Of a stretch of DNA of 32,000 nt, positions 5,761-32,000 are shown one piece after another. The stretch comes from Candidatus Methylomirabilis limnetica. Its GTDB lineage: Bacteria; Methylomirabilota; Methylomirabilia; Methylomirabilales; Methylomirabilaceae. Position 1 is the stretch's first letter, and every line of letters starts with the position of its first letter. The notes under the pieces were generated by a model. That model was not told where the DNA came from. It did not search any database and saw only the letters and a list, made by a program, of their open reading frames with translations. Made by a program: the position numbers and the translations under genes. Location of the stretch: contig NZ_NVQC01000017.1 in assembly GCF_003044035.1 (NCBI RefSeq), forward strand, positions 150,001-182,000, read 5' to 3'.

Positions 5761-5976
5761 TCAGGTCCCGCCAAACCCGATGGTCACTTTGCCCTTCTCG
5801 ATGATGACGGGAACCTCGCGCGAACCCTTCGAAACCTCCAACATCTGCGCCAGAGCCTTTGGGTCGTTCTTGACGTTGAGGTAGGTGAACGGGACGTTTC
5901 GCTTGGCGTACTCCTCCCGAGCCGCCGAGGTGTAGGGTCAGGTATCCTTTCCGTAAATGACGACCGCCGCCTCCAT
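5761..5976 (-). CDS. Glutaredoxin-like protein with in-frame TGA (candidate selenocysteine) in the redox motif
   Basis: From ATG 5976 (GGAGG 6 nt upstream) the frame reads MEAAVVIYGKDT[TGA 5940..5938]PYTSAAREEYAKRNVPFTYLNVKNDPKALAQMLEVSKGSREVPVIIEKGKVTIGFGGT*. This is a complete Grx/Trx-fold signature, and the TGA sits where the CPYC Cys normally is. Confidence 0.7.
5909..5934 (-). promoter_or_regulatory. Candidate SECIS hairpin for the glutaredoxin-like gene
   Basis: The mRNA segment UACACCUCGGCGGCUCGGGAGGAGUA starts 4 nt after the UGA. UAC/GUA and CCUC/GAGG pair around one A-A mismatch. The apical region GGCGGCUCGG is G-rich. Folded by eye only. Confidence 0.35.
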
Positions 5977-6017
5977 CTGCATCCTCCACTCTCTTCATTT
6001 CGTCTGATTTCTGCGTG

Positions 6018-6365
6018 TTAGACCCGCGTCATGGCCCGGTCAGCTTCTGTGGTCAACCGCTCGTATTCAAGCTTGATGTCGCGCATCTGCGGGTAGAGTT
6101 CCTGAATCTTCTCGTGGGGAAGCGGGATGGTCCGGCCCAGTTCAGTCAGCCGCTCCCCAACCAGCCGAGCCTGCCTGATGACCTCGAACGTCTTTCTGGC
6201 CGGCGGGGTCAGCGTCGCCACCTCCAGGAGGGCAAACATCCCGTCTTCATCTCGTGCCTGGTATAGCTCGTCCAACCGCTGCGCCTGGGTCTCGGTGGGG
6301 CCGCTTTCCCTCAGGGCATGCAGTACCTTCATCCGGTCGATTCGATAGCGAATATCGAGCATCAT
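6018..6365 (-). CDS. Hypothetical protein (115 aa, predicted helical)
   Basis: Track ORF with AAGGAGAG immediately upstream. The second ATG at 6362 has the better spacing. GC3-biased codons. It is the first gene of the operon with the Grx-like gene. I recognise no motif. Confidence 0.6.
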   Translation of the reverse strand: MMLDIRYRIDRMKVLHALRESGPTETQAQRLDELYQARDEDGMFALLEVATLTPPARKTFEVIRQARLVGERLTELGRTIPLPHEKIQELYPQMRDIKLEYERLTTEADRAMTRV

Positions 6366-6523
6366 CTCTCCTTATGCGTACGCTCTGATCATTTATCAGG
6401 TGTGATCTTACCACACCTTGCGCCTTGGCGCCAAAGCTTGAACGTACGGGGTCACTATCTCACCATGATTTGGTGTGTTACAATCACAAGCTAAGGCATG
6501 ATGAAGGAGGAAACGGACTCGGT

Positions 6524-7180
6524 ATGAAATTTCCATTTGTTACTGACCGACTGGCTGCGCAAGACATCCGAATGATCTTCCGCGTCGTGGCGGAGTTCGT
6601 TGATGGGCTGGAGACGCTCGCCACGATTCCGCCGGCCGTCTCTGTCTTCGGATCGACGCATACAGGACGAGATGATCCCGCCTACGCGATGGCAGAGCAG
6701 ATCGGCCGTTTGTTGGCTCAGCACGGGTATGCCGTCATCACCGGCGGTGGCCCTGGAGCCATGGAGGCGGCTAACAAAGGCGCCTACGAGGTGGGCGGCG
6801 TGTCGGTCGGCCTGAACATCGAGCTCCCCCAGCAGCAGGAACCTAACCGATACCTGACCAACCTTGTGAATTTCCAGCACTTCTTTGTCCGAAAGGTCAT
6901 GTTCGTGAAACACTCCATCGCTTTCGTCATCCTGCCGGGTGGCTATGGCACGCTGGACGAGATGTTCGAGTCGATCACGCTGATCCAGACTAGGAAGATC
7001 AAGCCGTTCCCAGTCATTCTGGTAGGCAATGACTACTGGCGAGGCTTACACGAGTGGCTCCGCGATCCCGTCATGAACGAAGGGAAGATCACGCCGAACG
7101 ACCTCGCAACGCTCAAGATTGCCCATAACCCTGAAGAGGTCATCCAACTCATCAAGGATTCTTCGACCTTCGGACTCTAA
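6524..7180 (+). CDS. LOG-family (TIGR00730-type) Rossmann protein, putative nucleotide 5'-monophosphate nucleosidase
   Basis: GGGPGAMEAANKGA and the PGGYGTLDE signature are present. The start is set to ATG 6524 (MKFPFVTDR), downstream of AAGGAGG. The track ORF starts at TTG 6425. Confidence 0.85.
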   Translation: MKFPFVTDRLAAQDIRMIFRVVAEFVDGLETLATIPPAVSVFGSTHTGRDDPAYAMAEQIGRLLAQHGYAVITGGGPGAMEAANKGAYEVGGVSVGLNIELPQQQEPNRYLTNLVNFQHFFVRKVMFVKHSIAFVILPGGYGTLDEMFESITLIQTRKIKPFPVILVGNDYWRGLHEWLRDPVMNEGKITPNDLATLKIAHNPEEVIQLIKDSSTFGL

Positions 7181-9702: not shown

Positions 9703-10446
9703 CTACTCTGCCTCGTCTGCCGGGCGCTGCTGCAACTCCTGGAGCGCTGTTCTTGGCCGCTCAACCGCCTCATCCCGCAGCAGCCGGCCATCTTTGAAGA
9801 ATAGTACGCGCCCGGCGTAGGTCGCGATGTCCGACTCATGGGTCACCAGGACGATGGTGATCCCAGCTTCCCTGTTCAGCCGCTGGAAAATCGCCATAAT
9901 CTCGGAACTGGTCTGCGAATCGAGATTGCCAGTGGGCTCATCAGCCAGGATGATCTGCGGCTCGTTGACAAGGGCCCGCGCGATCGCCACTCGCTGCTGC
10001 TGACCGCCCGAAAGCTGGTTCGGATGATGTTCTTTCCGATCTTCAAGGCCAACCGTTCGGAGGGCGTTGAGCGCTCTGACCCGGCGGTCGCGGACCGCAG
10101 CACCATTATACAGGAGTGGGAGTTCCACGTTCGCTACGGCGCTGGTCCTGGCCAGGAGGTTAAAGGTCTGAAAGACGAAGCCGATCTTCTTATTTCGGAT
10201 TTCGGCAAGCTCATCTCGATTGAGCTGACCCACGCTGACGCCGTCAAGCCGGTAGCTTCCGGATGTTGGCTTGTCCAGGCATCCCAGGATGTTCATCAAG
10301 GTGGACTTGCCGGACCCGGAGGCACCCATGATCGCTACACACTCCCCTCGTTCAATTCGGAAGGAGACCCCTCTTAATGCCTGGACGGTGACATCGCCCA
10401 GCCGATAGTTCTTGACCAAACTGTCGACCTCGATGAGAGCTGCCAT
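9703..10446 (-). CDS. ABC transporter ATP-binding protein (MacB/LolD-type)
   Basis: Walker [10 protein letters not shown], signature [15 protein letters not shown] and Walker [12 protein letters not shown] are all present. Confidence 0.92.
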
Positions 10447-19920: not shown

Positions 19921-20288
19921 ATGTAAATGTAATAAGTGTAACCTATTGTAAATACAGTGTTTTTTAACCAACAAATGATTATTTTCCCAAGCCCACAAAT
20001 GACTTGACAGTCGTGATGGAGTGGGCTAAAAGAGACGTCTCCTTAACAACGTCATGCGGGTAATTGCACATGAGACACGGTTTCCCACAGCCACCTTATC
20101 TGTCGAACTCGTCACGCGTCGGGGACGATGGGCCTCTTCATGAGGCGCGACAAGCATTTACGCCTTATCCACACCTGTGGATAACCCTGTGGATAATGGA
20201 AACCCCATCTGGCAAAGACTCTATAGGAATCGTACAGCATTTTCTTAATAGATTCAACAGGTTAGATAGGGAGGCTTCCTGTGGATAA
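19921..20288. other. Candidate oriC / dnaA regulatory region (AT-rich tract plus DnaA-box cluster)
   Basis: The stretch 19921-19990 is AT-rich (atgtaaatgtaataagtgtaacctattgtaaatacagtgttttttaaccaacaaatgattatttt) in an otherwise GC-rich window. Four perfect TTATCCACA boxes are present: 20165-20173 (+), 20176-20184 (-), 20188-20196 (-) and 20280-20288 (-). The last overlaps the dnaA GTG start. Confidence 0.65.
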
Positions 20289-21666
20289 CAATGGGCACGG
20301 TGCGCAGGTGAATCCGATCAATTCGTCCACCAGGGCACATGAGATCTGGCAAGAGGCCCTCTCAATCATCCAGGGTAAGGTCACACGCCAAAGCTTCGAC
20401 AATTGGTTTCGCCCCCTGGCCCTGGAGTCGTTGGAAGACTCATGCGTCACGGTTCAGCTCCCGAATCAATTCTTTAAGGAGTGGTTTGAGGACCACCATC
20501 TAACTGTACTCAAATCGGTACTCGCGGATCTGATGTTCGCCAGCGTCGAGGTCATCCTCCGCATTGCTGAGCCAGGGGGGCAGGGCGAGCCAGATGTAAA
20601 ACCCGAACCTGCCGTCAGACGACCAGTGAAGCGATTCCGGAACGAATCTGCAGTCCTCAACCCGAAGTATGTCTTCGAGAACTTCGTCGTAGGGAGCTCC
20701 AACCAGTTCGCCCACGCCGGCTGTCTGGCCGTGGCAGAGCAGCTTTCGAAAGCGTACAATCCGCTCTTTATCTATGGGGGCGTTGGCTTAGGGAAGACTC
20801 ACCTGCTCCATGCCATCGGCCACCTGGCCCTCAAGCGAAATAATAGGCTCAGGCTTGCCTATGTCTCATCCGAGAAGTTTACGAACGACCTGATTAATGC
20901 CATCCGTTTCGATTCCACTGGTGAGTTCCGCAACCGCTACCGTAGCCTGGACCTGCTTCTCATCGACGATATCCAGTTTATCGCCGGCAAAGAGCGGACC
21001 CAGGAGGAGTTCTTCCATACCTTTAATGATCTGTACGACTCCTCCAAGCAGATCGTGGTCACCTCTGACAGCCTCCCGCGCGAGATCCCCACGCTGGAGG
21101 AGCGGCTACGTTCCCGGTTCGAGTGGGGTCTGATCGCTGACATCCAGTTGCCGGACCTCGAGACCAAGGCTGCCATCCTTCGGAAAAAGGCGCAGGCGGA
21201 TGGCGCGCGGATCCCTGATGATGTCTCACTCTTTATCGCCAAGAACGTGCAGTCAAGTATCCGGGAACTGGAAGGCTCGTTGGTCCGCCTCATCGCCTAC
21301 GCCTCGCTGACGGGCCGCGACATCACCTTAGAGCTCGCCCAGGAGACACTGAAGGAACTGAACGCCGAGCGGGCCAAGGTCATCACGCTGACCGCCATAC
21401 AGCACACGGTGGCCGACTTCTATCGCGTCAAGGTCGAGGATCTCAAATCCAAGGGCAGAAACCAGGGTGTGGTTCTGCCGCGCCAGGTCGCCATGTACCT
21501 CAGTCGAACACTCACCGCCTCCTCGCTGCCGGTTATCGGCGAGGCGTTCGGCGGAAAGGACCATACGACAGTGATCCACTCCTGCGAGAAGATCAAGCGG
21601 AGGCTCGCAACGGATGAGGCATTCCGGCGACAAATCGACTCCCTCTCCCAAACGATCACCTCTTAG
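20281..21666 (+). CDS. dnaA: Chromosomal replication initiator protein DnaA
   Basis: GTG start with GGGAGG 6 nt upstream. Present are the AAA+ Walker A (GGVGLGKTHLL), Walker B (LLLIDDIQF), sensor/box VII (VVTSD) and the C-terminal DnaA-box binding signature (ARQVAMYLSRTLT...IGEAFGGKDHTTVIHS). Confidence 0.95.
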   Translation: MDNNGHGAQVNPINSSTRAHEIWQEALSIIQGKVTRQSFDNWFRPLALESLEDSCVTVQLPNQFFKEWFEDHHLTVLKSVLADLMFASVEVILRIAEPGGQGEPDVKPEPAVRRPVKRFRNESAVLNPKYVFENFVVGSSNQFAHAGCLAVAEQLSKAYNPLFIYGGVGLGKTHLLHAIGHLALKRNNRLRLAYVSSEKFTNDLINAIRFDSTGEFRNRYRSLDLLLIDDIQFIAGKERTQEEFFHTFNDLYDSSKQIVVTSDSLPREIPTLEERLRSRFEWGLIADIQLPDLETKAAILRKKAQADGARIPDDVSLFIAKNVQSSIRELEGSLVRLIAYASLTGRDITLELAQETLKELNAERAKVITLTAIQHTVADFYRVKVEDLKSKGRNQGVVLPRQVAMYLSRTLTASSLPVIGEAFGGKDHTTVIHSCEKIKRRLATDEAFRRQIDSLSQTITS

Positions 21667-22972: not shown

Positions 22973-23722
22973 TCATAGCCTCTGCCAAAGCCATTGCGGC
23001 GTCAGGCGAAGCGCATACGTCGAGAGGATCGTGAAATAGTTGGTGAGCAGGAGGCCGCCGACAAAAACGAGGAAGATCCCGCCAACGGTACTCACAACCG
23101 GTATCAACCGTTTGTACCGGTCAAAATAGTCGAGAAAGCGATTGAGGGCGAGGGCGCTCAAAAAGAACGGGATGGCGAGGCCGAGCGAGTAGGCGCCGAG
23201 CATCATGATCCCCGTATAGGCAGTCTTGGCCGTGCTCGCGTACAGCAGGATGGAACCCAGAATCGGGCCGACACACGGGGTCCATCCGGCAGCAAAGGTC
23301 ACCCCCACGATGAACGCGCCCAGATATCCGGCCGGTCGATCCTTTAGCTCAAACTGGAAGGTCCGCGTGAGAAAAGGGAACTTGAGGAAACCGGCAATGT
23401 ACAGGCCGAACAGGATGACCAGCACGCCCCCGACCTTCCTGAGAATCTGTTGGTAGTCAAACAGGAGCTGACCCAGCAGACTAAAGGAGGCGCCCAACGA
23501 CATGAACACCACGGAAAAGCCGAAGATGAAGCAGAGGGCGTTCAGGATGATCGCCCGGCGTGTTCTTATATTGTTCACTGAGCCCGATAGTTCACTGAAC
23601 GAGAGGCCGGTTATGAAGGAGAGGTAGGAGGGAAAGATCGGAAGCACGCAGGGTGAGAGGAAGGAAAGGATCCCGGCCCCCAGGGCCATCCAGATGGTCA
23701 ATGCTCCGTCGGTCCCCAACAT
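22973..23722 (-). CDS. ccdA: Cytochrome c biogenesis / thiol-disulfide electron conduit CcdA (DsbD-family membrane protein)
   Basis: 249 aa and polytopic. The two conserved Cys motifs are LSFLSPCVLPIFP and AAGWTPCVGPILG. Confidence 0.88.
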   Translation of the reverse strand: MLGTDGALTIWMALGAGILSFLSPCVLPIFPSYLSFITGLSFSELSGSVNNIRTRRAIILNALCFIFGFSVVFMSLGASFSLLGQLLFDYQQILRKVGGVLVILFGLYIAGFLKFPFLTRTFQFELKDRPAGYLGAFIVGVTFAAGWTPCVGPILGSILLYASTAKTAYTGIMMLGAYSLGLAIPFFLSALALNRFLDYFDRYKRLIPVVSTVGGIFLVFVGGLLLTNYFTILSTYALRLTPQWLWQRL

Positions 23723-23748
23723 CAGCAGCCTATCGTCTTGGCCCTGCC

Positions 23749-25107
23749 CTACTCGGAGAGCGCTGCCTTAGCCTGATCGGCCACGACGACCAGGACGTAA
23801 CCATCCGGCCTGAGATAGGTGCGCGCCACTCGGAGGATGTCCTCTTTGCTGATACCATCGATCAGCGTCCGGTAGCGGTCCGCATAGTCCAAGCCGAGCT
23901 TGTAATACTCCACCGAGGAAATCAACCCGGCGAGTTTTGCGTTAGTATCGAGCCGAAGGGGAAAGCTTCCGGTCAGGTAGGCCTTCGCATCAGCCAGCTC
24001 CTGATCGGTCACCCCCTGCTCCCGGATCCGCTGAAGCTCACGCACCACCTCCTGTATCGCAGGACCGGCGGTCTCATTCTTGGTCTGCAGCACCACCTGA
24101 AACGATCCTCGCTCCAGGCCGGGAGAGAATTGGGAGCTGACATCATAGGCCCAGCCCTTTTGCTCACGTATTCGCTCTACCAGGCGAGAGGAAAACCCGC
24201 CTCCTCCCAGGATGTAGTTCATGACCGTCAAGGCGTAGAAATCCGGATTATCCCGCCGGATTCCCTGATGACCGAGGATGATATTCGCCTGCGTCACGCT
24301 CCGTTCTACCTTTTTGACGACGATCTTCCCCTGAAGCGGCGTGGGCTCTGTCGCCCGCTTCACTGTTGCCTTGCTTTTCGGCCACGAACCAAGTAGTGCG
24401 CGAATCTGACCGGTGATCTCGCTTCGGTCGACGTCGCCCACCACGGTCACAAAGGTCCGTTCCGGAGTATAGTGATCGCGATAGAACCCCACAATCTCAT
24501 CCCTGGTGATCGCGGTGAGGGTCGCCTCGCGTCCCTCCAGCGGACGACCGTATGGGTGGCTCCCAAAGACCAGATCGTCGAATACCTCCTGAGCCACCTC
24601 GCCAGGCTCCTCCTGCCGCTTCCGTAGCGCCGCCCTGATCTCCTGTACCTTCCTGGTGATCTCCCCTTGCTCAAAGGCCGGGTGAAGCAGGGCGTCCGCC
24701 AGTAGCTCCAGCCCCTTTGGCAAATCCTTCTTCAACACGGTCAGATCCAGTTCACTCAGATCCCGACCAGCGGATGAAGAGAGGGAGGCGCCAATAAAGT
24801 CCACCGACTCATCGATCTGGGCGGCTGTGCGAGTCGCCGTGCCCCTCGTCAGCAGCAGGGCCGTCAGATTGGCCAGCCCCGCACGCCCCTCCTGCTCCCA
24901 CAGGGAGCCCGATTGCACCATCACCTTGATGGTCACAATCGGGAGCGCCCGACTGCTCCTGACCAGCAGCGTAAGCCCATTCTCCAGAACCTGTCGTTCG
25001 GCTAACGGGGCCGCCGCCACGATTACAGGCTGCAGCAGGAGCAGCAGAAGACCCAATATCGTAATCAGTCGGTATCGTCGCATCGCGCTATTTATCGCCT
25101 TTCGCAT
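23749..25107 (-). CDS. M16-family (pitrilysin/insulinase-like) peptidase, non-catalytic subunit type
   Basis: M16 N and C domains with a signal peptide (RLITILGLLLLLLQPVIVAAAP). Where HxxEH should sit the sequence is ANLTALLLTRGT. The start is uncertain: ATG 25107, ATG 25083, or GTG 25128, which lies inside a repeat. Confidence 0.8.
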   Translation of the reverse strand: MRKAINSAMRRYRLITILGLLLLLLQPVIVAAAPLAERQVLENGLTLLVRSSRALPIVTIKVMVQSGSLWEQEGRAGLANLTALLLTRGTATRTAAQIDESVDFIGASLSSSAGRDLSELDLTVLKKDLPKGLELLADALLHPAFEQGEITRKVQEIRAALRKRQEEPGEVAQEVFDDLVFGSHPYGRPLEGREATLTAITRDEIVGFYRDHYTPERTFVTVVGDVDRSEITGQIRALLGSWPKSKATVKRATEPTPLQGKIVVKKVERSVTQANIILGHQGIRRDNPDFYALTVMNYILGGGGFSSRLVERIREQKGWAYDVSSQFSPGLERGSFQVVLQTKNETAGPAIQEVVRELQRIREQGVTDQELADAKAYLTGSFPLRLDTNAKLAGLISSVEYYKLGLDYADRYRTLIDGISKEDILRVARTYLRPDGYVLVVVADQAKAALSE

Positions 25108-25114
25108 CCTGCAC

Positions 25115-25282
25115 CAAACCCCCCTCACCCCCCTTTAAAGGGGGGTGACTTGAGGGTACTGAGGGCAGCCACAAGGGCTGCCCCTACACCCCGCGCTGCA
25201 CTAAATCTTTCCGTTCCCCCCTTTGATAAAGGGGGGTGAGGGGGGTTTACTCCATGCTGGGCGCAGCAAGCAGCGCCCCTAC
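25115..25282. repeat. Repeat cluster: half family-A palindrome followed by a second copy of the B + A + C module
   Basis: The half palindrome is CAAACCCCCCtcaCCCCCCTTTAAAGGGGGG (25115-25147). Hairpin B spans 25163-25187, TCCCCCCTTTgatAAAGGGGGGtgaGGGGGGTTTA spans 25215-25249, and hairpin C spans 25259-25282. Confidence 0.85.
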
Positions 25283-26643
25283 TTCTTTATTTTCTCCGGG
25301 ATCAGTACAGCGACGGTGCGATGATCCGGGGTCAGGTAGAGCCTCGCGACCCGTTGCAGATCCGCTGCCGTGACGGCGCGGATACCGGGGAGGTATGCCT
25401 CCCATGCGCGCCAGCCGGCCACGATCTCATACTCGGCCAGTTGCCTGGCCAGGCTGAACACCGAATCCTGCCCGAAGAGGAAACCGGCCTCGATCTGATT
25501 CTTCGCCTTCTGCAGCTCACGGTCCGGGACAGGGTCGTTTTTCACGCGCTCGATCTCTGCCGTCAGAGCCTGTTCAACCTCTTCAGCCGTTTTACCAGGC
25601 ATTACGCTAGCGTAAAACGGGAAAAGGTTCGGGTCGATACTTTCCCGGTAATACCCCCCGCCGGCAAACAGCGCAAGCTGTTTCTCGTAGACCAGGCTCT
25701 TGTAAATCCTGGCGCTCTTGCCGCCAGACAGGATATAGGCCAGAATCTCGAGGGCAAAGTTATCGGGATGTTTCAGATTCGGGACATGGTACCCCATAAA
25801 CACAAACGGTAGCTCCGCCTCCTTCTTCAGGACAAGCCTCCGCTCTCCCCGTTGCTCCGGTTCGATGGCGCGGACTGCGGGCGGGTCAGCGCCCCGTGGA
25901 ATCGCGCCAAAGTGCTGTCGAATTTTTGGAAGCAGCTCGTCGCTCTTGAAATCACCGACCACGATCAGCACGGCGTTATTCGGCACATAGTAGGTGTTGT
26001 AGTGGCGTACCAGATCCTCCCGGTCCAGCTTCTCGATGTCAGACATCCAGCCAACGACAGGCTGCCGGTACGGGTGCACCTGAAACGCAGCAGCCCCCAT
26101 CACCTCCCTCAGGGCGGAGATAGGCTCATCTTCTGTCCGCAGCCGGCGCTCCTCCATGACGACTGCCCTCTCCGATTCCGCCTCCTTCCGATCAATGAGG
26201 AGACCCCGCATCCGATCGGCCTCGAGCTCCAGGGCCAGTTCGACCCGATCCGAGGCAAACGTCTCGAAGTAGCCGGTGTAATCATCGCTGGTGAAGGCGT
26301 TGTCGCGACCGCCGTTTCTCTTGATGACCCTCGAAAACTGGCCGGGGCCTAGCTTCGATGTCCCCTTGAACATCATGTGCTCCAACAGGTGAGACAGGCC
26401 GGTGGTTCCAGGTTGCTCGTTGCGCGCGCCAACCCGATACCAGATGTGGATCGTTACCACGGGCGCCTTGTGCTCTTCAAGCAACAGGATCTTCAGCCCG
26501 TTCTCGAGCGCCGACTCCTTCACCCTGGCCGTGACCTGCGCGTCCACTAGACCTGGGGCCAGGATGACACAGAGAATCATCCAGGCTATCGCCAATCCCA
26601 GTCTTTGCAGTCGCTGTATCCGCTGTCTCATTACCGCTGCCAT
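25279..26643 (-). CDS. M16-family zinc peptidase, catalytic subunit type
   Basis: The inverted zinc motif HxxEH is present (GLSHLLEHMMFKGT). It has a signal peptide (LAIAWMILCVILAPGLVDAQ) and pairs with the downstream inactive paralogue. Confidence 0.88.
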   Translation of the reverse strand: MAAVMRQRIQRLQRLGLAIAWMILCVILAPGLVDAQVTARVKESALENGLKILLLEEHKAPVVTIHIWYRVGARNEQPGTTGLSHLLEHMMFKGTSKLGPGQFSRVIKRNGGRDNAFTSDDYTGYFETFASDRVELALELEADRMRGLLIDRKEAESERAVVMEERRLRTEDEPISALREVMGAAAFQVHPYRQPVVGWMSDIEKLDREDLVRHYNTYYVPNNAVLIVVGDFKSDELLPKIRQHFGAIPRGADPPAVRAIEPEQRGERRLVLKKEAELPFVFMGYHVPNLKHPDNFALEILAYILSGGKSARIYKSLVYEKQLALFAGGGYYRESIDPNLFPFYASVMPGKTAEEVEQALTAEIERVKNDPVPDRELQKAKNQIEAGFLFGQDSVFSLARQLAEYEIVAGWRAWEAYLPGIRAVTAADLQRVARLYLTPDHRTVAVLIPEKIKK

Positions 26644-26649
26644 GGCGCG

Positions 26650-27120
26650 CTAACGACTCGATCCTTCATATTTGACACGGACCACCTGACCCACCGTAAC
26701 GCTCATCTCTTGGGCGAATCCTGCCGGAACCTCCAGCACCATATCGGCTACCTGACTGACGACGGCAGGCGCCTCATGCAGGCGCGGCGGAGCAACGTTC
26801 GCATCAATGGCCACCATCTTACCCTCCCTGATCCAGAGAATATCGATCGGGATCAGCATCCCTTTCATCCAGAATACTCTGGGCTTCGCCGCGTCAAAAG
26901 GGAAGAGCATCCCTCTACCCTTTAAAAGCGACGATCGGCCCCCCAGCCCCCTCGCCTGCTCCTGTGCGGTTCGCACCACCTCAACGGTAATCGTCACCCG
27001 GCCGTCAATGACCACCTCGCCCCCTTGAAGGGCCGAGGCATCAGAGACCAGGAGCAGGTAGAGCAGAAGAGAGAAGAAGAAAGGGAACCCCTGGATGAAG
27101 AAATTCTGAACCGTCTTCAT
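26650..27120 (-). CDS. DUF192-domain protein (secreted)
   Basis: 156 aa with an N-terminal hydrophobic signal. The DUF192 hallmark blocks are present: RGLGGRSSLLKGRGMLFPF, FWMKGMLIPIDILWI and EVPAGF. Its ATG overlaps the htrA stop by 4 nt. Confidence 0.8.
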   Translation of the reverse strand: MKTVQNFFIQGFPFFFSLLLYLLLVSDASALQGGEVVIDGRVTITVEVVRTAQEQARGLGGRSSLLKGRGMLFPFDAAKPRVFWMKGMLIPIDILWIREGKMVAIDANVAPPRLHEAPAVVSQVADMVLEVPAGFAQEMSVTVGQVVRVKYEGSSR

Positions 27121-28235
27121 TTCTCAGGCAGCTCTCCCAGCCGAACCGAGAGGGCAAGTGGCCGCCCATCCCTAAGAATCTCGATCTTCACCTGGTCTCC
27201 CACCTTCCGCTCCCCATCCAAAAAGGCCGTCAGATCGTCTATCGATATCATCTTTCGGCTATCGACCGCAACGATAATATCCCCTCCTACATTGACCAGC
27301 ATGTTACCGACCCGCGCCTTTCTTGTACTTCCCCTGATGCCCGCACGGTCCACCGGACCTTTTGGAGAGACCTGCATCACGACGATCCCCTGCCGAACCG
27401 GAAGCTTCAGGGCGTTGACCAACTCTGGCGTGATGTCCAGTCCGGCGACGCCCAGCCAGGGATGACTGACCCGCCCCTTGGCGATCAACTGGGGGAGCAG
27501 TCGCTTCGCCGTATCGATTGGGATGGCAAAACCGATTCCGACAGACCCGCCGCTCGGTGTGTAGATGGCGCTGTTGATCCCGACGACCTCGCCCCTGGAG
27601 TTCAGCAGCGGTCCGCCTGAATTGCCGGGATTGATCGGCGCGTCGGTCTGGATGACGCCTCGAATCTGGCGTCCACTCTCAGAGCGGAGCGTCCGACCCA
27701 TCGAGCTGATCACGCCGCGGGTGACGGTTCGATCCAGGCCGAACGGATTGCCGATGGCAATGGCCATCTGCCCCACCTGCACGGTATCGCTACTTCCCAA
27801 CTTCAAAGGGAAAAGCTTCTCCTTCGGAACAGAAATCTTTATGACTGCCAGATCATTGCTGGGATCACGGCCGATCAACTTTGCCGAAACCTTACTCTTG
27901 TCGGGTAACGTCACCTCTAGACTGTCAGCCTCTTCCACCACATGGTTATTCGTCAGGATATATCCCCGGTCATCCACTACGAAGCCCGTACCAGTACCTT
28001 TCTGGGGGACCGGATTGGAGAATACATCGTACGCCAGGGCGGTGCTGGTGATGTGAACGACGCCTGGGCTGGCATGTTTATAGACTGATATCACAATCTG
28101 TTCCTCAGGGCTAAGGCCAGAATTTTCCGCTTGGGTTTTTTGTGCCAGGGCGTCAACCCCAACGACGAGGCACCCAGCAGTCAAGAGCACAGCCAACACT
28201 GCGCGCCGAACCTGACCGGAAAAGCTATCAGACAA
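27117..28235 (-). CDS. htrA: HtrA/DegP-family periplasmic serine protease with C-terminal PDZ domain
   Basis: The catalytic triad contexts are TNNHVV, NDLAVIK and GNSGGPLL, with a PDZ domain at the C-terminus. The start is set to in-frame TTG 28235, 8 nt after GAAGGAG, giving the signal anchor VRRAVLAVLLTAGCLVVGV. The track ORF extends to TTG 28337. Confidence 0.88.
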   Translation of the reverse strand: MSDSFSGQVRRAVLAVLLTAGCLVVGVDALAQKTQAENSGLSPEEQIVISVYKHASPGVVHITSTALAYDVFSNPVPQKGTGTGFVVDDRGYILTNNHVVEEADSLEVTLPDKSKVSAKLIGRDPSNDLAVIKISVPKEKLFPLKLGSSDTVQVGQMAIAIGNPFGLDRTVTRGVISSMGRTLRSESGRQIRGVIQTDAPINPGNSGGPLLNSRGEVVGINSAIYTPSGGSVGIGFAIPIDTAKRLLPQLIAKGRVSHPWLGVAGLDITPELVNALKLPVRQGIVVMQVSPKGPVDRAGIRGSTRKARVGNMLVNVGGDIIVAVDSRKMISIDDLTAFLDGERKVGDQVKIEILRDGRPLALSVRLGELPEK

Positions 28236-28414
28236 ATGCCTCGCTCCTTCGATTACGTCAGCAACCCAAAAAGAAAAGTGGATCCTCCGTCCACTTCGAC
28301 GACTGTAAAACACCACCGTGGGCTTGTCAACGCCCAAGGTGGCTAATCCAACTTTGCGAGCAAATCAGAGTCTACAGTGAGAGGCCCATAGCACTTCCTG
28401 TCTCGCACCTCGCA

Positions 28415-28564
28415 CTACTGTTTCGAAATGTATTTCTCCGGCGACTGCTCGAAGGCTCGTTTGCAGCCTACAGCGCAGAAATAGTAGGTCACCCCTTGAT
28501 AGACGGCTGTGGCCGCCGCCCGCTTTTCATCCACCATCATCTCACATACGGGATCTTTCGACAT
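28415..28564 (-). CDS. 49-aa YHS/TRASH-domain metal-binding protein
   Basis: [49 protein letters not shown], preceded by GGAGGGGGAG. It is below the ORF-track size cutoff. It parallels the first 46 aa of CopA in this window (DPICGMDV...[19 protein letters not shown]). Confidence 0.8.
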   Translation of the reverse strand: MSKDPVCEMMVDEKRAAATAVYQGVTYYFCAVGCKRAFEQSPEKYISKQ

Positions 28565-28578
28565 CGCTCCCCCTCCGC

Positions 28579-29016
28579 TCACCTTGCGTATTTTCGGTCA
28601 ATTGCCGTCTTGATCTCTGCAACTGTCTTTCCCTGCTTGTGCATGGCATACGCATCCAGCGTAATGTCTTGGCACATCCCTCACCCGTCGGCATGCCGAT
28701 CCGCGTAACAATCGAGGTTGCTTTGATGGTTGGCCGACGCGACGCAACCGCAATAGCAGGGCATCTGCTCGATCAGTTCCGGCGCTTCCTTGGCGATCCG
28801 ATAGGCCTGCGCTGTTTTTCCACTGAACAGCGCAGGTGACGGCGTAACCGGCCGCGGCCGTTTCGGAATTACCTGAAGCACGCTACCGGCGCCTTCTGCT
28901 CTCCTCACGCCCGGGCGCCAACCAACGTCAAGCCCGACGAATAGGCCGACCAGGCCTCCGCCAAGGATCTTGAGAACCGCTCGTCGGTCAGACTGCTCTC
29001 CTTCATCCCGTTCCAT
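28579..29016 (-). CDS. Tat-signal PCYCGC-domain protein with in-frame TGA (candidate selenocysteine) in a U-x-x-C motif
   Basis: The track ORF (28681-29016) stops at TGA 28683..28681. Read-through in the same frame gives ...QMPCYCGCVASANHQSNLDCYADRHADG[U]GMCQDITLDAYAMHKQGKTVAEIKTAIDRKYAR*. The N-terminus has a twin-arginine motif (SDRRAVLKILGGGLVGL). The extension restores the conserved C-terminal half of the PCYCGC family. Confidence 0.7.
28647..28666 (-). promoter_or_regulatory. Candidate SECIS hairpin for the PCYCGC gene
   Basis: The mRNA segment CAUUACGC-UGGAU-GCGUAUG starts 14 nt after the UGA. It forms a 5-bp plus 2-bp stem with one bulged U, and the pentaloop contains GG. Folded by eye only. 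Confidence 0.35.
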
Positions 29017-29039
29017 ACGCCTTCACCCTCCTCCCTTGT

Positions 29040-29268
29040 GTGTGTTGCGTCTATTGCGTCTATTGCGTTCATTTTCGTTGAGGGTCGATACCCCGCGGCT
29101 TGCCGCGAGTTCGTCATACCGGCGGAAGCCGGTATCCAGCGGGCCAGACTGGATTCCCCCGTATCCAGTACGGGGCAGGCGTGTCAAGCACGGAATGACG
29201 GTCCAGAACATAAGACGATACCCCGCGGCTTGCTGCGGGGTGTTTCATGGCGTTCATGGCGTCTAGCG
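29040..29268. repeat. Composite MITE-like repeat: 9-nt tandem arrays flanking an 18-nt direct repeat pair and nested hairpins
   Basis: TTGCGTCTA appears twice, followed by TTGCGTTCA (29044-29070). CGATACCCCGCGGCTTGC occurs at 29085-29102 and again at 29215-29232. The core hairpins are GTCATACCGGCggaaGCCGGTATCCAG and CCCCGTAtccagTACGGGG. TTCATGGCG-type 9-mers span 29242-29268. Confidence 0.75.
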
Positions 29269-29307
29269 CCTTACGCTGCACGCTATAGAGCATATTCGCC
29301 GATCCCG

Positions 29308-31917
29308 CTATGAGGACGCCGGCACGGCTGTGGGCTGAAATCTCCGTAAGCGGAGGGCATTGCTGACCACGGTGACCGAGGAGAGCGCCATGGCTGCGCC
29401 GGCCAGGACCGGACTCAGCATCACCCCCCACAACGGGTACAGGACGCCGGCGGCCACCGGGATCAGGACCACATTATAGGCAAATGCCCAAAACAGGTTC
29501 TGCTTGATGTTTCGCATCGTCAATCTACTTAACTGTAGCGCTGTCACGACGCTTCGCAGATCGCCCCCGATCAGGGTGATATCGGCCGCTTCCATCGCCA
29601 CATCGGTCCCTGTTCCGATGGCGATCCCGACATCGGCCTGGGCCAGGGCGGGGGCGTCATTGATCCCATCGCCCACCATGGCCACCAGCTTCCCCTGCTC
29701 CTGGAGCCTGCGAACTTCCAGCGCCTTATGTTCCGGCAGAACCTCCGCCATGATCCGGTCGATTCCGACCTGCCTGGCGATAGCCTCGGCGGTCCGACGG
29801 GTATCTCCGGTGATCACGGCCACCTCAATGCCCAGGTGACGTATGGCAACTACGGCCGACTGCGAATACGGCTTCACGACGTCGGCCACAGCCACAATGC
29901 CGAGGAGCCGGGCATCGGCGGCGACGAACATCGACGTCTTCCCCTCCCCCGAGAGCGCTTCCGCCTGCTCGCCCATCCCGGCGAGGTCAATCCCGCGCTC
30001 CCGCATCAGAGCGATATTGCCAAGGAGAATCTCCCGCCCCTCTACGACGGCCCTGATCCCATATCCAGGGATCGCCTTAAACTCCTGCGGCTCGGCCACG
30101 TCGAGCCCCTTTGCCTTGGCGTAATCAATGATCGCCTGTCCAAGCGGGTGCTCGGAGCCTTGTTCCGCCGATGCCGCAAGCCGAAGTAGCTCCCGCTCAT
30201 CCGGGCTCAGCGATAAGTTTCGAGTTTCGGGTTTCGGGTTTCTGGTCAAATTCGATGAAGAACTCGAAACTCGAAACTCGAAACTCGAAACAACATCCGT
30301 AACTACCGGCTGGCCGACGGTCAGCGTACCAGTCTTATCGAAAATGATCACGTTCACCTGGTAGGCTCGTTCAAGGCTCTCGGCGTTCTTGATCAGAATA
30401 CCGTACTCTGCCCCCTTCCCGATTCCGACCATAATCGACGTGGGCGTCGCGAGACCCAGGGCACAGGGGCAGGCGATCACCAGCACGGCCACGAAGTTCG
30501 AGAGGGCAACGAGAAACGCCTGCTCACCCCCGAGCAGCAGCCAGACCCCGAAGGTCACGACCGCGATAACCAGGACGATCGGCACAAAGACCCCGGCGAT
30601 CTTATCGACCAGTCGCTGGATGGGCGCCTTTGATCCCTGGGCCTGCTCGACCAATCGGACGATCTGGGCGAGGACGGTCTCTTGTCCCACCTTGGTCGCC
30701 TCGAACTTGAAGCTGCCCATCTTATTCATCGTTGCGCCAACCACCTGATCGCCCGGCCCCTTCTCCACAGGGAGGCTCTCCCCGGTCAGCATCGATTCAT
30801 CAAGCGCCGATCGACCCTCGCGGATAATCCCGTCCACCGGCACCTTCTCCCCCGGCCTGACCAATACCAGGTCGCCGGCCCTAACCTCCTCCACCGGGAT
30901 GTCTTGCGCGAGGTCCCCACGGATTACCCGAGCGGTCTTGGCCCGAAGTCCCATCAGTGTCTTAATCGCCTCAGAGGTCCGACCCTTCGCCTTGGCCTCA
31001 AGCCACCTTCCCATGACGATCAGGGTCATGAGGATGCTCGCTGTGTCGTAGTAGGTCATCGCCTCCATCCCCGTCGGAGCGATGGCCGCAGGGAAGAAGG
31101 TGAGCGCCGCACTGTACAGGTAGGCCGCATTCGTCCCGATCGACACCAGGGTGTTCATATCGGCGGTTCGGTGTTTCAGACTCATCCAGAACCCTCGATG
31201 GAACTGCCAGCCGACCCAGAACTGTACTGGTGTGGTAAGAACAAAGAGCAGGTTGGGGTTGGCGAGCAGCGAAGGCGCCCACGGGAACCAGTCCGGAAAA
31301 CTGCCAAGCAGGATGGGGACGCTCAGGGCCGCCCCAACCAGAAATCTGGTCCGAAGCAGGCGGATCTCCGCATCTGCTGTCGCCTTCTCCTGATCGGGCG
31401 TTGGGACAGCATCCATGTCCGGGACAACATACCCGGCCGCTTCGATTGAGTTGCGCAGATCAGCCGGCTGGGTGACGGCGTCAAGGTAGGTCACGCTCGC
31501 CCGCTCCGTTGCGAAGTTGACGGAGGCGGAGACCACCCCCGGGACTTCCAGCAACGTCTGCTCGATGCGCTGCACGCACGAGGCGCAAGACATCCCCCGG
31601 ATCGGGATCTCGACTACCCTCGTGTTCGCACGTTGCACCTCGGGCGCTACACTCAAAACCCCCCTTTGCCCCCCTTTGCTAAAGGGGGGGGCAGGTGGTT
31701 TTGGACTTTGCCCCTCTGCCTCTGCACGCCCTATCCCCATATTCCCCCCTTTCGTAAAGGGGGGGTGGGGGGGTTTAGTCACATACTGCTCCGGCGACTT
31801 GTCGAAGGCTTCTTTACAGCCCACCGCGCAGAAATAGTACTCTACCCCTCGGTAGCGGCTCGTGCCTGCGGCCTCCTCGGGGAGCACATCCATACCACAA
31901 ATCGGGTCTCTTGCCAT
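29308..31917 (-). CDS. copA: Copper-translocating P1B-type ATPase with N-terminal YHS/TRASH and HMA domains
   Basis: Domain and motif evidence: the YHS domain (DPICGMDV...[19 protein letters not shown]), the HMA motif GMSCASC, TGES, the CPC motif ([11 protein letters not shown]), DKTGTLT, SEHPLG and [10 protein letters not shown]. Confidence 0.93.
30217..30291. repeat. Inverted repeat of 7-nt units (GTTTCGR)4 ... (CTCGAAA)4 lying in frame inside copA
   Basis: GTTTCGAGTTTCGGGTTTCGGGTTTCTGG, then a 17-nt spacer, then CTCGAAACTCGAAACTCGAAACTCGAAAC. It is translated as [25 protein letters not shown]. Confidence 0.85.
31654..31777. repeat. Two family-A GC palindromes lying in frame inside copA
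   Basis: The two copies are CAAAACCCCCCTTTGCCCCCCTTTgctAAAGGGGGGGGcaGGTGGTTTTGG (31654-31703) and TCCCCCCTTTcgtAAAGGGGGGGtGGGGGGGTTTA (31743-31777). They are translated as [11 protein letters not shown]...[13 protein letters not shown] in the linker between the YHS and HMA domains. Confidence 0.85.
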
Positions 31918-32000
31918 TACCAGCTTCCCAACTCTTGGCGTCTGCCGCTGAAGCCTCCTCGACCGGCCAAAAGATCAAACAGCATGACAATGGAACGAGG
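31917..32000 (-). CDS. 3' end of an unidentified upstream gene, translationally coupled to copA
   Basis: The minus-strand frame reads ...[27 protein letters not shown], and its TAA shares one base with the copA ATG (TAATG). It is too short to identify. Confidence 0.3.

Follow-up and report, generated by a model that had tools for sequence, protein, structure and literature searches.

An in-frame selenocysteine codon in a CYCXC-family gene next to copA, in a probable copper-efflux gene cluster of a Methylomirabilis-like bacterium

Does the in-frame UGA of a gene next to copA encode selenocysteine (Sec), and what would an exported selenoprotein do beside a copper pump? The locus that raises these questions lies on the minus strand at the end (28415-32000) of a 32,000-nt stretch of the Candidatus Methylomirabilis limnetica genome (contig NZ_NVQC01000017.1), here called the window. 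The original prediction described it as a copper island in which a YHS-HMA-CopA ATPase, a PCYCGC-motif protein and a free YHS protein are encoded one after another, and this gene set, with its coordinates and strand, is present in all its parts. The window was compared with 56 species-level loci from genomes and with the loci fetched for P0015. The UGA specifies Sec as the first residue of a UxxC motif, its decoding aided by a downstream selenocysteine insertion sequence (SECIS) hairpin, and 28415-32000 probably covers the distal genes of a copper-efflux cluster in a Methylomirabilis-like (NC10) bacterium.

An in-frame UGA decoded as selenocysteine

The PCYCGC open reading frame (ORF; 28681-29016) stops at a TGA at 28683-28681, and readthrough to the TGA at 28579-28581 yields the full-length protein. 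The match to the Pfam PCYCGC domain (PF13798, cutoff 25 bits) spans the in-frame TGA, and the readthrough protein covers positions 2-89 of the 90 in NF041379, the NCBIfam equivalog "CYCXC family (seleno)protein" (model OS_HP4_CYCXC, cutoff 90; scores in Table 1). Within it, C87, Y88, C89, G90, C91, H97, C103, H108, U112 and C115 all fall in invariant columns of alignments A1 and A6. The window protein shares with CYCXC/OS_HP4 (NF041379, PF13798) the domain, the CYCxC motif and the UxxC position of Sec, and shows no structural difference from it. NCBI already annotates relatives as (seleno)proteins, and the family is already catalogued (NF041379/OS_HP4), so it is not new. It is a known prokaryotic selenoprotein family, listed with no function (PMC13188914, PMC9312934), and a literature search found no functional study of CYCXC, PCYCGC or OS_HP4, including any on Methylomirabilis selenocysteine or copper. 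The PF13798 family is large, with at least 6400 proteins at E <= 1e-5 among 8000 candidates examined.

Read as a true stop, the TGA would leave a truncated 111-aa protein with a separate 32-aa ORF, or a pseudogene. Gene callers have treated it in this way, ending all of the ~44 close database homologues at the same codon (...DRHADG/T), and NC10 genomes have an ATG two codons past the TGA that could serve a separate ORF. We give this reading almost no credence, as the codon is always TGA and always at the position of an invariant cysteine (Cys). TGA is found there in 28 loci (27 of them non-redundant, the genes of L001-L003 being identical), never TAA or TAG, and these loci come from the Methylomirabilota, Deltaproteobacteria/Desulfobacterales, Acidiferrales, Tectomicrobia, Nitrospinaceae, Terriglobia and Anaerolineae. 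In more distant full-length homologues, the UGA aligns with the invariant first Cys of a CxxC, and 37 loci carry such a Cys form. Furthermore, the frame continues beyond the codon across several bacterial lineages: in all 28 TGA loci an xxC-DI(T/S/A)LDAY...GK...IK..ID.KY tail is kept over the next 33-48 codons. Beyond NC10 the TGA is followed by ATC, CTG or ATT, and no restart codon is conserved; a separate small ORF therefore cannot explain the downstream conservation.

The UGA is also followed, at a fixed distance, by a covarying hairpin. Numbered from the U of UGA, its lower stem joins nt 8-12 to nt 42-46 and its upper stem nt 18-25 to nt 31-37. The apical loop of the window sequence, UGGAU, starts 22 nt after the UGA (nt 26 from the U) and places G at nt 27-28; across the Sec forms the loop is UGGAN and its position is fixed. 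The upper stem reads UUACGC/GCGUAU in NC10, UCUCGC/GCGAGA in Tectomicrobia and Nitrospinaceae, and UUGCGC/GCGCAA in Terriglobia, with compensatory changes (AU to GC, AU to UA) at pairs 18-37, 21-35 and 22-34, and the Anaerolineae stem is offset by one base. In the hairpin alignment 86.5% of cells pair, compared with 6-59% in slid registers, and the covariation score, with double changes at three upper-stem pairs, was matched by none of 500 shuffles. Uninterrupted pairs number 5.70 in the Sec forms against 4.35 in the 37 Cys forms (without phylogenetic correction), and the best local stems of the Cys forms lie at scattered positions with no common loop.

Two further results speak for a true stop. 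Single-sequence minimum free energy folding of the region after the UGA is no better than that of shuffled sequences (z = 0.12), so the case for a SECIS element rests on the comparative data, and no SECIS family in Rfam matches 28000-32000 at E <= 10. No selenocysteine tRNA was found in the window or in 26 related loci, and no sel genes were found among the window ORFs scanned with Pfam, which cover 32 kb of the genome. Set against these are the constant choice of TGA, the conserved downstream frame and the hairpin described above, along with a readthrough protein that scores above the NF041379 equivalog cutoff and a family whose members NCBI already names (seleno)proteins. Together these leave a true stop codon effectively excluded. 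The predicted Sec/Cys protein with PCYCGC and UxxC is accordingly upheld as an exported PCYCGC-domain protein with a genuine Sec codon. Sec is confined to this product, as CopA and both YHS modules of the window are Cys forms; the free YHS protein scores only 17.8 bits against NF041384 (cutoff 70).

The copA gene cluster and its control

The product of copA is a Cu-type P1B ATPase. It matches the Pfam E1-E2_ATPase (203 bits) and Hydrolase (HAD; 123 bits) families and the NCBIfam models TIGR01511 (617 bits, cutoff 397) and TIGR01525 (643 bits), and its sequence carries CPC, DKTGTLT, HMA (GMSCASC) and YHS. Against the E. coli CopA equivalog it scores 678 bits, under the cutoff of 1316, and it is therefore a member of the family and not that exact orthologue. 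A YHS domain does precede the single HMA domain, as the original prediction stated, but it is not the unusual feature it was taken for: the YHS-CopA fusion recurs in the unrelated loci L014 and L054 and is a founding context of the YHS Pfam domain, and is thus ordinary.

Table 1 Features of the copper locus at the end of the window.
Feature	Coordinates	Strand	Basis
Geranylgeranyl-reductase-family flavin adenine dinucleotide (FAD) flavoprotein gene, 3' end	31917..32000	-	last 28 codons; matches C-terminus of the L001 397-aa protein
copA, Cu(I)-exporting P1B-type ATPase, 869 aa	29308..31917	-	Pfam, NCBIfam, CPC and DKTGT motifs
CopA N-terminal YHS/TRASH domain, aa 3-47	31777..31911	-	PF04945 50 bits, cutoff 30.3
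CopA single HMA domain, aa 105-163, GMSCASC	31429..31605	-	PF00403 58.8 bits, cutoff 24.8
copA-CYCXC spacer, 291 nt	29017..29307	-	holds direct repeat
CYCXC/PCYCGC-family selenoprotein gene, 145 aa including Sec112	28579..29016	-	NF041379 122.2 bits, PF13798 57.3 bits
PCYCGC motif, aa 86-91	28744..28761	-	columns invariant in alignments A1, A2, A6 and A7
In-frame UGA, selenocysteine 112, first residue of UxxC	28681..28683	-	aligns with invariant Cys
SECIS-like hairpin	28638..28676	-	compensatory changes, fixed position in Sec forms
Free YHS/TRASH protein, 49 aa	28415..28564	-	PF04945 52.5 bits, cutoff 30.3

The gene upstream of copA runs past the end of the window, and its stop codon (TAA, 31919-31917) overlaps the copA ATG as TAATG. 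Its translational coupling to copA was foreseen correctly; its description as an unknown gene was not, since it encodes a geranylgeranyl-reductase-family flavoprotein (TIGR02032). The full-length 397-aa protein of L001 matches that model with 237 bits (cutoff 158.8), and the truncated gene of the window shares the TAATG overlap with the L001 gene. The same flavoprotein gene precedes copA in L001, L005-L007 and L009-L011; in L001 it lies at 5849-7042, and in NC10 genomes its place between csoR and copA is conserved.

The beginning of the cluster can be read from orthologous loci. In L001 (GCA_003104975.1, Methylomirabilota) the full gene order is csoR, flavoprotein, YHS-HMA-copA, CYCXC gene (with TGA) and YHS. 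The csoR product of L001 belongs to PF02583, and its top NCBIfam match is RicR (NF052430). Upstream of csoR, a conserved palindrome, TACCCT-N-GTAGGGTA, overlaps the -10 region in L001, L005, L006, L007 and L009; the promoter in these five NC10 genomes is TTGAC-N17-TATACT, and we take the palindrome to be of the CsoR operator type. That the clusters of orthologous genomes start with csoR and a CsoR-type operator bears out the predicted copper setting. CsoR-controlled copZA/cso operons are known in Bacillus subtilis and Mycobacterium tuberculosis. The orthologous loci resemble them in having a CsoR-family gene and a TACCC...GGGTA-type promoter palindrome followed by a Cu-ATPase gene; they differ in that the Methylomirabilis loci add the geranylgeranyl-reductase-family flavoprotein and the exported selenoprotein, and in that YHS replaces the HMA-type CopZ. 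A further copy of the full csoR-flavoprotein-copA-CYCXC-YHS cluster lies on the L005 contig (DATMXF010000105.1), which is labelled Patescibacteria group bacterium; the proteins are 84-88% identical to those of Methylomirabilota, and the contig is probably mis-binned NC10.

The last gene of the cluster repeats the YHS module of CopA as a free 49-aa protein, as had been predicted; the two modules are 58% identical. The gene starts 14 nt past the selenoprotein stop behind a GGAGG ribosome-binding site, and in all Methylomirabilis-clade loci the CYCXC gene precedes it by 12-79 nt. The cytoplasmic protein has no signal peptide and a Cys pattern of C7-x22-C30-x3-C34. By these features it fits a CopM-like pattern: a small stand-alone domain, C-x19-22-C-x3-C, with a Cu-ATPase gene nearby. 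The small TRASH proteins of Sulfolobus (CopM, 56-71 aa) are co-transcribed with copA and induced by Cu (PMC3595675), and the Sulfolobus copT-copM-copA locus likewise places a small free TRASH/YHS protein (49-71 aa across the two systems, C-x19-22-C-x3-C) beside a Cu-ATPase gene (PMC3595675). In contrast to Sulfolobus, the host here is a bacterium, the small gene is downstream of copA and behind a selenoprotein gene, the regulator in the orthologues is CsoR and not CopT, and CopA itself also has a YHS domain.

How far transcription of these genes is shared differs along the cluster. Between the CYCXC and YHS genes lie 12-14 nt in one of the two subclades and 64-79 nt in the second, and the two genes are almost certainly one transcription unit; transcriptional coupling of this pair to copA is plausible. 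The spacer between copA and the CYCXC gene contains the repeat that the original prediction placed there, an 18-22-nt direct repeat at 29086-29107 and 29216-29237 (chance expectation 0.05 matches). The repeat flanks a segment of ~100 nt with terminal inverted repeats CGTCATTCCG...CGGTATGACG, and at the same place the L001 spacer (9760-10000) holds a different element, bounded by CGTCATTCC...GGAATGACG. These inserts look like small mobile elements of the miniature inverted-repeat transposable element (MITE) or repetitive extragenic palindromic (REP) kind. A scan of the window's spacer found no consensus promoter or terminator, and in an Rfam search of 28000-32000 (E <= 10) the only matches were spurious microRNA-like ones on the palindromic insert.

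Several of these observations weigh against treating the selenoprotein gene as part of a copper-regulated unit. The csoR gene and its operator lie past coordinate 32000 and are seen in the orthologous loci. The spacer measures 83, 129, 241, 291 or 404 nt across the NC10 genomes; its sequence is unconserved in orthologous loci and carries the inverted-repeat-bounded inserts. A second CsoR box was searched for before the CYCXC gene and was not found. With a long, variable spacer and no CsoR box, the CYCXC gene may or may not share the regulation of copA. One candidate box, the hairpin TACGCTGGATGCGTA, was rejected: with its centre included in the comparison, it departs from the operator consensus at four positions.

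Palindromic sequences also occur within copA. The palindrome CCCCCCTTT-NNN-AAAGGGGGG has eight sites in the window (4410, 4436, 8400, 18295, 22899, 25216, 31669-31689 and 31744-31764), where none is expected by chance (expectation 0). Six are intergenic and resemble REP or terminator hairpins, and two lie in frame within copA, in the linker between YHS and HMA, coding there for PPFSKGG and PPFTKGG; the same linker of the L001 orthologue contains one such copy. At 30216-30291 copA also contains an in-frame palindromic insert, with GTTTCGAG repeats opposite CTCGAAAC repeats (-38.7 kcal/mol), which falls between the DKTGT motif and the nucleotide-binding domain of CopA. A similar insert occupies this site in L005 and L007 and is absent from L001, L009 and L010, and hairpins seem to insert preferentially in this linker of CopA.

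Copper-handling neighbours across lineages

The copper association of the PCYCGC family is real but lineage-restricted. Genes were considered within a radius of 8 kb around PCYCGC-family genes. The expectation that these genes adjoin metal ATPases was not refuted: throughout the Methylomirabilis clade (L001-L011 and the window), copA lies directly upstream of the CYCXC gene in every locus with enough upstream flank, and YHS lies downstream. In Anaerolineae/Chloroflexi (L028, L031, L061/L062 and L064) a cupredoxin/COX2-like gene is directly downstream, often with a Fer4_5 membrane protein, and L061 also carries csoR and an HMA-copA, 4.3 kb further along that strand. In the Methanoperedens loci L034, L043 and L047 the genes directly downstream code for homologues of the L028 cupredoxin/Fer4_5 protein (26-28% identity over 426-456 aa). 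Among Deltaproteobacteria, L026 has an overlapping Caa3_CtaG gene, L013 an HMA protein nearby, and L014 a YHS-HMA-copA at -7.3 kb together with a zf_CopZ protein and a MerF-like ORF. Finally, csoR-copA lies at -5 kb in Peribacillus L040, and YHS-copA at +4.6 kb in the archaeon L054. None of the copA/csoR/YHS, cupredoxin, CtaG, TlpA or CcdA contexts of CYCXC is mentioned in the literature we found.

It is possible, though in our view improbable, that the adjacency to copA is inherited synteny without function, and that the PCYCGC protein acts on Fe, Zn or Hg or in envelope maintenance. The evidence that favours this also limits the copper association itself. Most loci outside NC10 have no copper genes within 8 kb: none was found at that distance from four Terriglobia Sec loci, 15 of 16 Bacillales loci or most DPANN loci, nor near the Acidobacteria-type Cys loci L020, L060, L066 and L067, whose neighbours are YjbQ, DUF885 and M16 peptidases. 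One Parageobacillus member sits beside an Fe3+ binding protein (PMC13068155). The conserved order in NC10 amounts to a single inherited event, and the variable spacer with no operator before the CYCXC gene fits synteny as well. The tally of copper neighbours also lacks a matched random-gene control; by rough estimate, ~1% of loci would be expected to have copA within 8 kb. Against synteny alone, the CYCXC-YHS pair stays with copA in NC10 even as selenoprotein identity drops to ~57-66%, whereas what follows the pair varies from genome to genome, and at least five further lineages independently have copper-handling neighbours.

Four recurrent neighbours belong to no family that a Pfam search at E <= 10 could name, these being the delta-type 240-aa and ~400-aa proteins and the archaeal 148-aa and 164-aa proteins. 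In Deltaproteobacteria, a conserved membrane protein of ~380-400 aa follows the Sec-form CYCXC gene (L014, +200..+1400; L018, 8441-9640; L026, 1533-2669) and contains two W(I/V)HL(V/M)(A/G)F(A/G)LW(F/L)G motifs; this ~400-aa protein may resemble CopD/CtaG-type copper membrane proteins. The DPANN loci L049-L059 share a conserved four-gene cluster of the 148-aa and 164-aa membrane proteins, a Cys-type PCYCGC protein and a CcdA-like protein.

Possible roles of the CYCXC protein

The PCYCGC domain is predicted to be extracytoplasmic because of the N-terminal signals in the sequences. The NC10 proteins start with SDRRAVLK and a Gly-rich hydrophobic stretch, which is twin-arginine-like; the Cys homologues have lipoboxes or ordinary signal peptides, and the delta forms a basic N-terminus and one transmembrane helix. 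One PCYCGC-family member has also been predicted to be a lipoprotein (PMC13068155). An AlphaFold2 model was made of a Cys homologue (P0068) whose motif spacing equals that of the window protein. Its mean predicted local distance difference test score (pLDDT) is 84.8, exceeding 90 over most of the domain, and it is predicted to consist of 10 helices without any strand, the longest helix opening with the CxxC. Searched against the PDB with Foldseek, this model returned nothing at E < 2 and no thioredoxin-fold match, and a PDB sequence search gave only a non-significant match to saposin A (E = 0.99). By any test available, the modelled CYCXC protein is neither a thioredoxin fold (Sco, TlpA, CopG/DUF411) nor a Csp-type bundle.

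Possible reductants are encoded near many of these genes. TlpA-like thioredoxin genes occur near 7-8 Sec-form loci, and a CcdA-like membrane protein (a weak SfLAP match with NPC...PC motifs) is encoded directly downstream in nine DPANN loci and L034; in the window, L006 and L007, a CcdA gene lies 5 kb downstream. In CuA assembly, Sco1/SenC is an extracytoplasmic copper protein with a Cys pair and a His, reduced by a TlpA-type thioredoxin. The CYCXC protein could be a functional analogue, with genes near oxidase and cupredoxin genes, and no homology is implied; Sco has a thioredoxin fold and CxxxC, whereas the CYCXC model consists of helices throughout and resembles no PDB entry significantly.

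On balance, we favour with moderate confidence the explanation of the locus as a copper-efflux cluster in which the CYCXC protein acts in the periplasm, as a thiol/selenol protein linked to copper. At the csoR promoter, CsoR would let go of its operator (TACCC-N5-GGGTA) when cytoplasmic Cu(I) rises. The signal-less YHS protein might then, in the manner of CopZ or of the archaeal TRASH chaperone CopM, hand Cu(I) to CopA, which would pump it out. Outside the membrane, the exported, all-helical CYCXC protein would be the copper-linked thiol/selenol protein, with the conserved CYCGC, Cys, two His and U/CxxC as candidate ligands or redox centre; most likely it would capture Cu(I) or pass it on, though it might instead carry out a copper-linked selenosulfide redox step. 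TlpA-like or CcdA-like systems could hold the U/CxxC pair reduced, as they do for Sco-type copper chaperones. With Sec in place of Cys, the ligand or nucleophile would be softer, have a lower pKa and withstand irreversible oxidation.

Does the protein bind copper, or does it act only on thiols? Cu(I) binding by the CYCXC protein is pure inference, and UxxC with an N-terminal Sec is the usual pattern of redox selenoproteins (PMC9312934, PMC13188914), not of metal carriers; both points tell against the copper-linked role. A pure oxidoreductase role is the chief rival, accidental synteny being a minor one. The protein would here be a periplasmic selenosulfide/disulfide oxidoreductase, helical and not of the thioredoxin fold, in which the CxxC begins a helix, as it does in CcmH. 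Its place in a copper operon would be explained by the wrong disulfides that exported Cu catalyses, or by a need to reduce cuproprotein Cys before metallation, and its electrons would come from CcdA and TlpA-like proteins. We consider this somewhat unlikely, while recognizing that a thiol/selenol redox role fits the TlpA/CcdA neighbours equally well as Cu(I) binding does. Outside NC10 no neighbours recur more often than TlpA-like and CcdA-like proteins, and the CxxC of the AlphaFold2 model opens a long helix. The second Foldseek match is the periplasmic domain of CcmH (2hl7), with a probability of only 0.14, template modelling (TM) scores of 0.25/0.43 and a non-significant E of 2.7. An oxidoreductase would, however, leave the invariant CYCGC, Cys and two His unexplained, residues that resemble a metal site, and metal hand-over accounts at least equally well for a place right beside a metal pump, CtaG and cupredoxins.

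A further-reaching possibility, which we regard as rather doubtful, is that PCYCGC/CYCXC proteins are an unrecognised and structurally novel extracytoplasmic class that handles Cu(I). They would take Cu(I) from CopA-type pumps or CtaG/CopD-like proteins, and buffer it or deliver it to cuproenzymes, which might be of the cupredoxin, oxidase or particulate methane monooxygenase type, with TlpA/CcdA as reductant. In many anaerobe-associated lineages, on this tentative account, Sec would have replaced the first Cys of CxxC, raising Cu(I) affinity or resisting over-oxidation.

The link between selenium and copper that the original prediction drew thus keeps its copper context, within restricted lineages, but not its novelty as a concept. 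Sec forms of HMA-type cation ATPases, YHS-domain proteins and CopZ-like proteins exist (PMC13188914, PMC9312934), and Sec forms of soft-metal-handling proteins have been implicated in heavy-metal resistance (PMC13188914). As reviews already list such Sec forms, selenium in soft-metal-handling proteins is not new. The present locus resembles them in that Sec replaces a motif Cys, and differs in that only the CYCXC protein carries it. What is new here is the genomic argument that ties the function-less CYCXC family to copper handling in several lineages. NC10 methanotrophs, which depend on copper enzymes, conserve the csoR–copA–CYCXC–YHS arrangement, and this, together with the independent cupredoxin, CtaG and TlpA/CcdA pairings, gives a testable hypothesis of a periplasmic copper-linked thiol/selenol protein. 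If it is true, CYCXC would add a new fold to bacterial copper trafficking and offer a concrete case of selenium use tied to copper handling; if not, the locus would be an ordinary copper-efflux operon with a neighbouring selenoprotein.

Beyond the YHS gene, the minus strand continues with a run of genes at 22973-28337 that encode an HtrA-like protease (27117-28337), a DUF192 protein (26650-27120), two M16 peptidases (25279-26643 and 23749-25128) and a CcdA/DsbD_TM protein (22973-23722). The same HtrA-DUF192-M16-M16-CcdA run is present in L004, L006 and L007, and an M16 peptidase pair also lies 4-6 kb from the Cys-type PCYCGC genes of the Acidobacteria-type loci L060, L066 and L067. The window also contains dnaA at 20281-21663 on the plus strand, with DnaA_N, Bac_DnaA and Bac_DnaA_C domains, and is therefore probably near the chromosomal replication origin.

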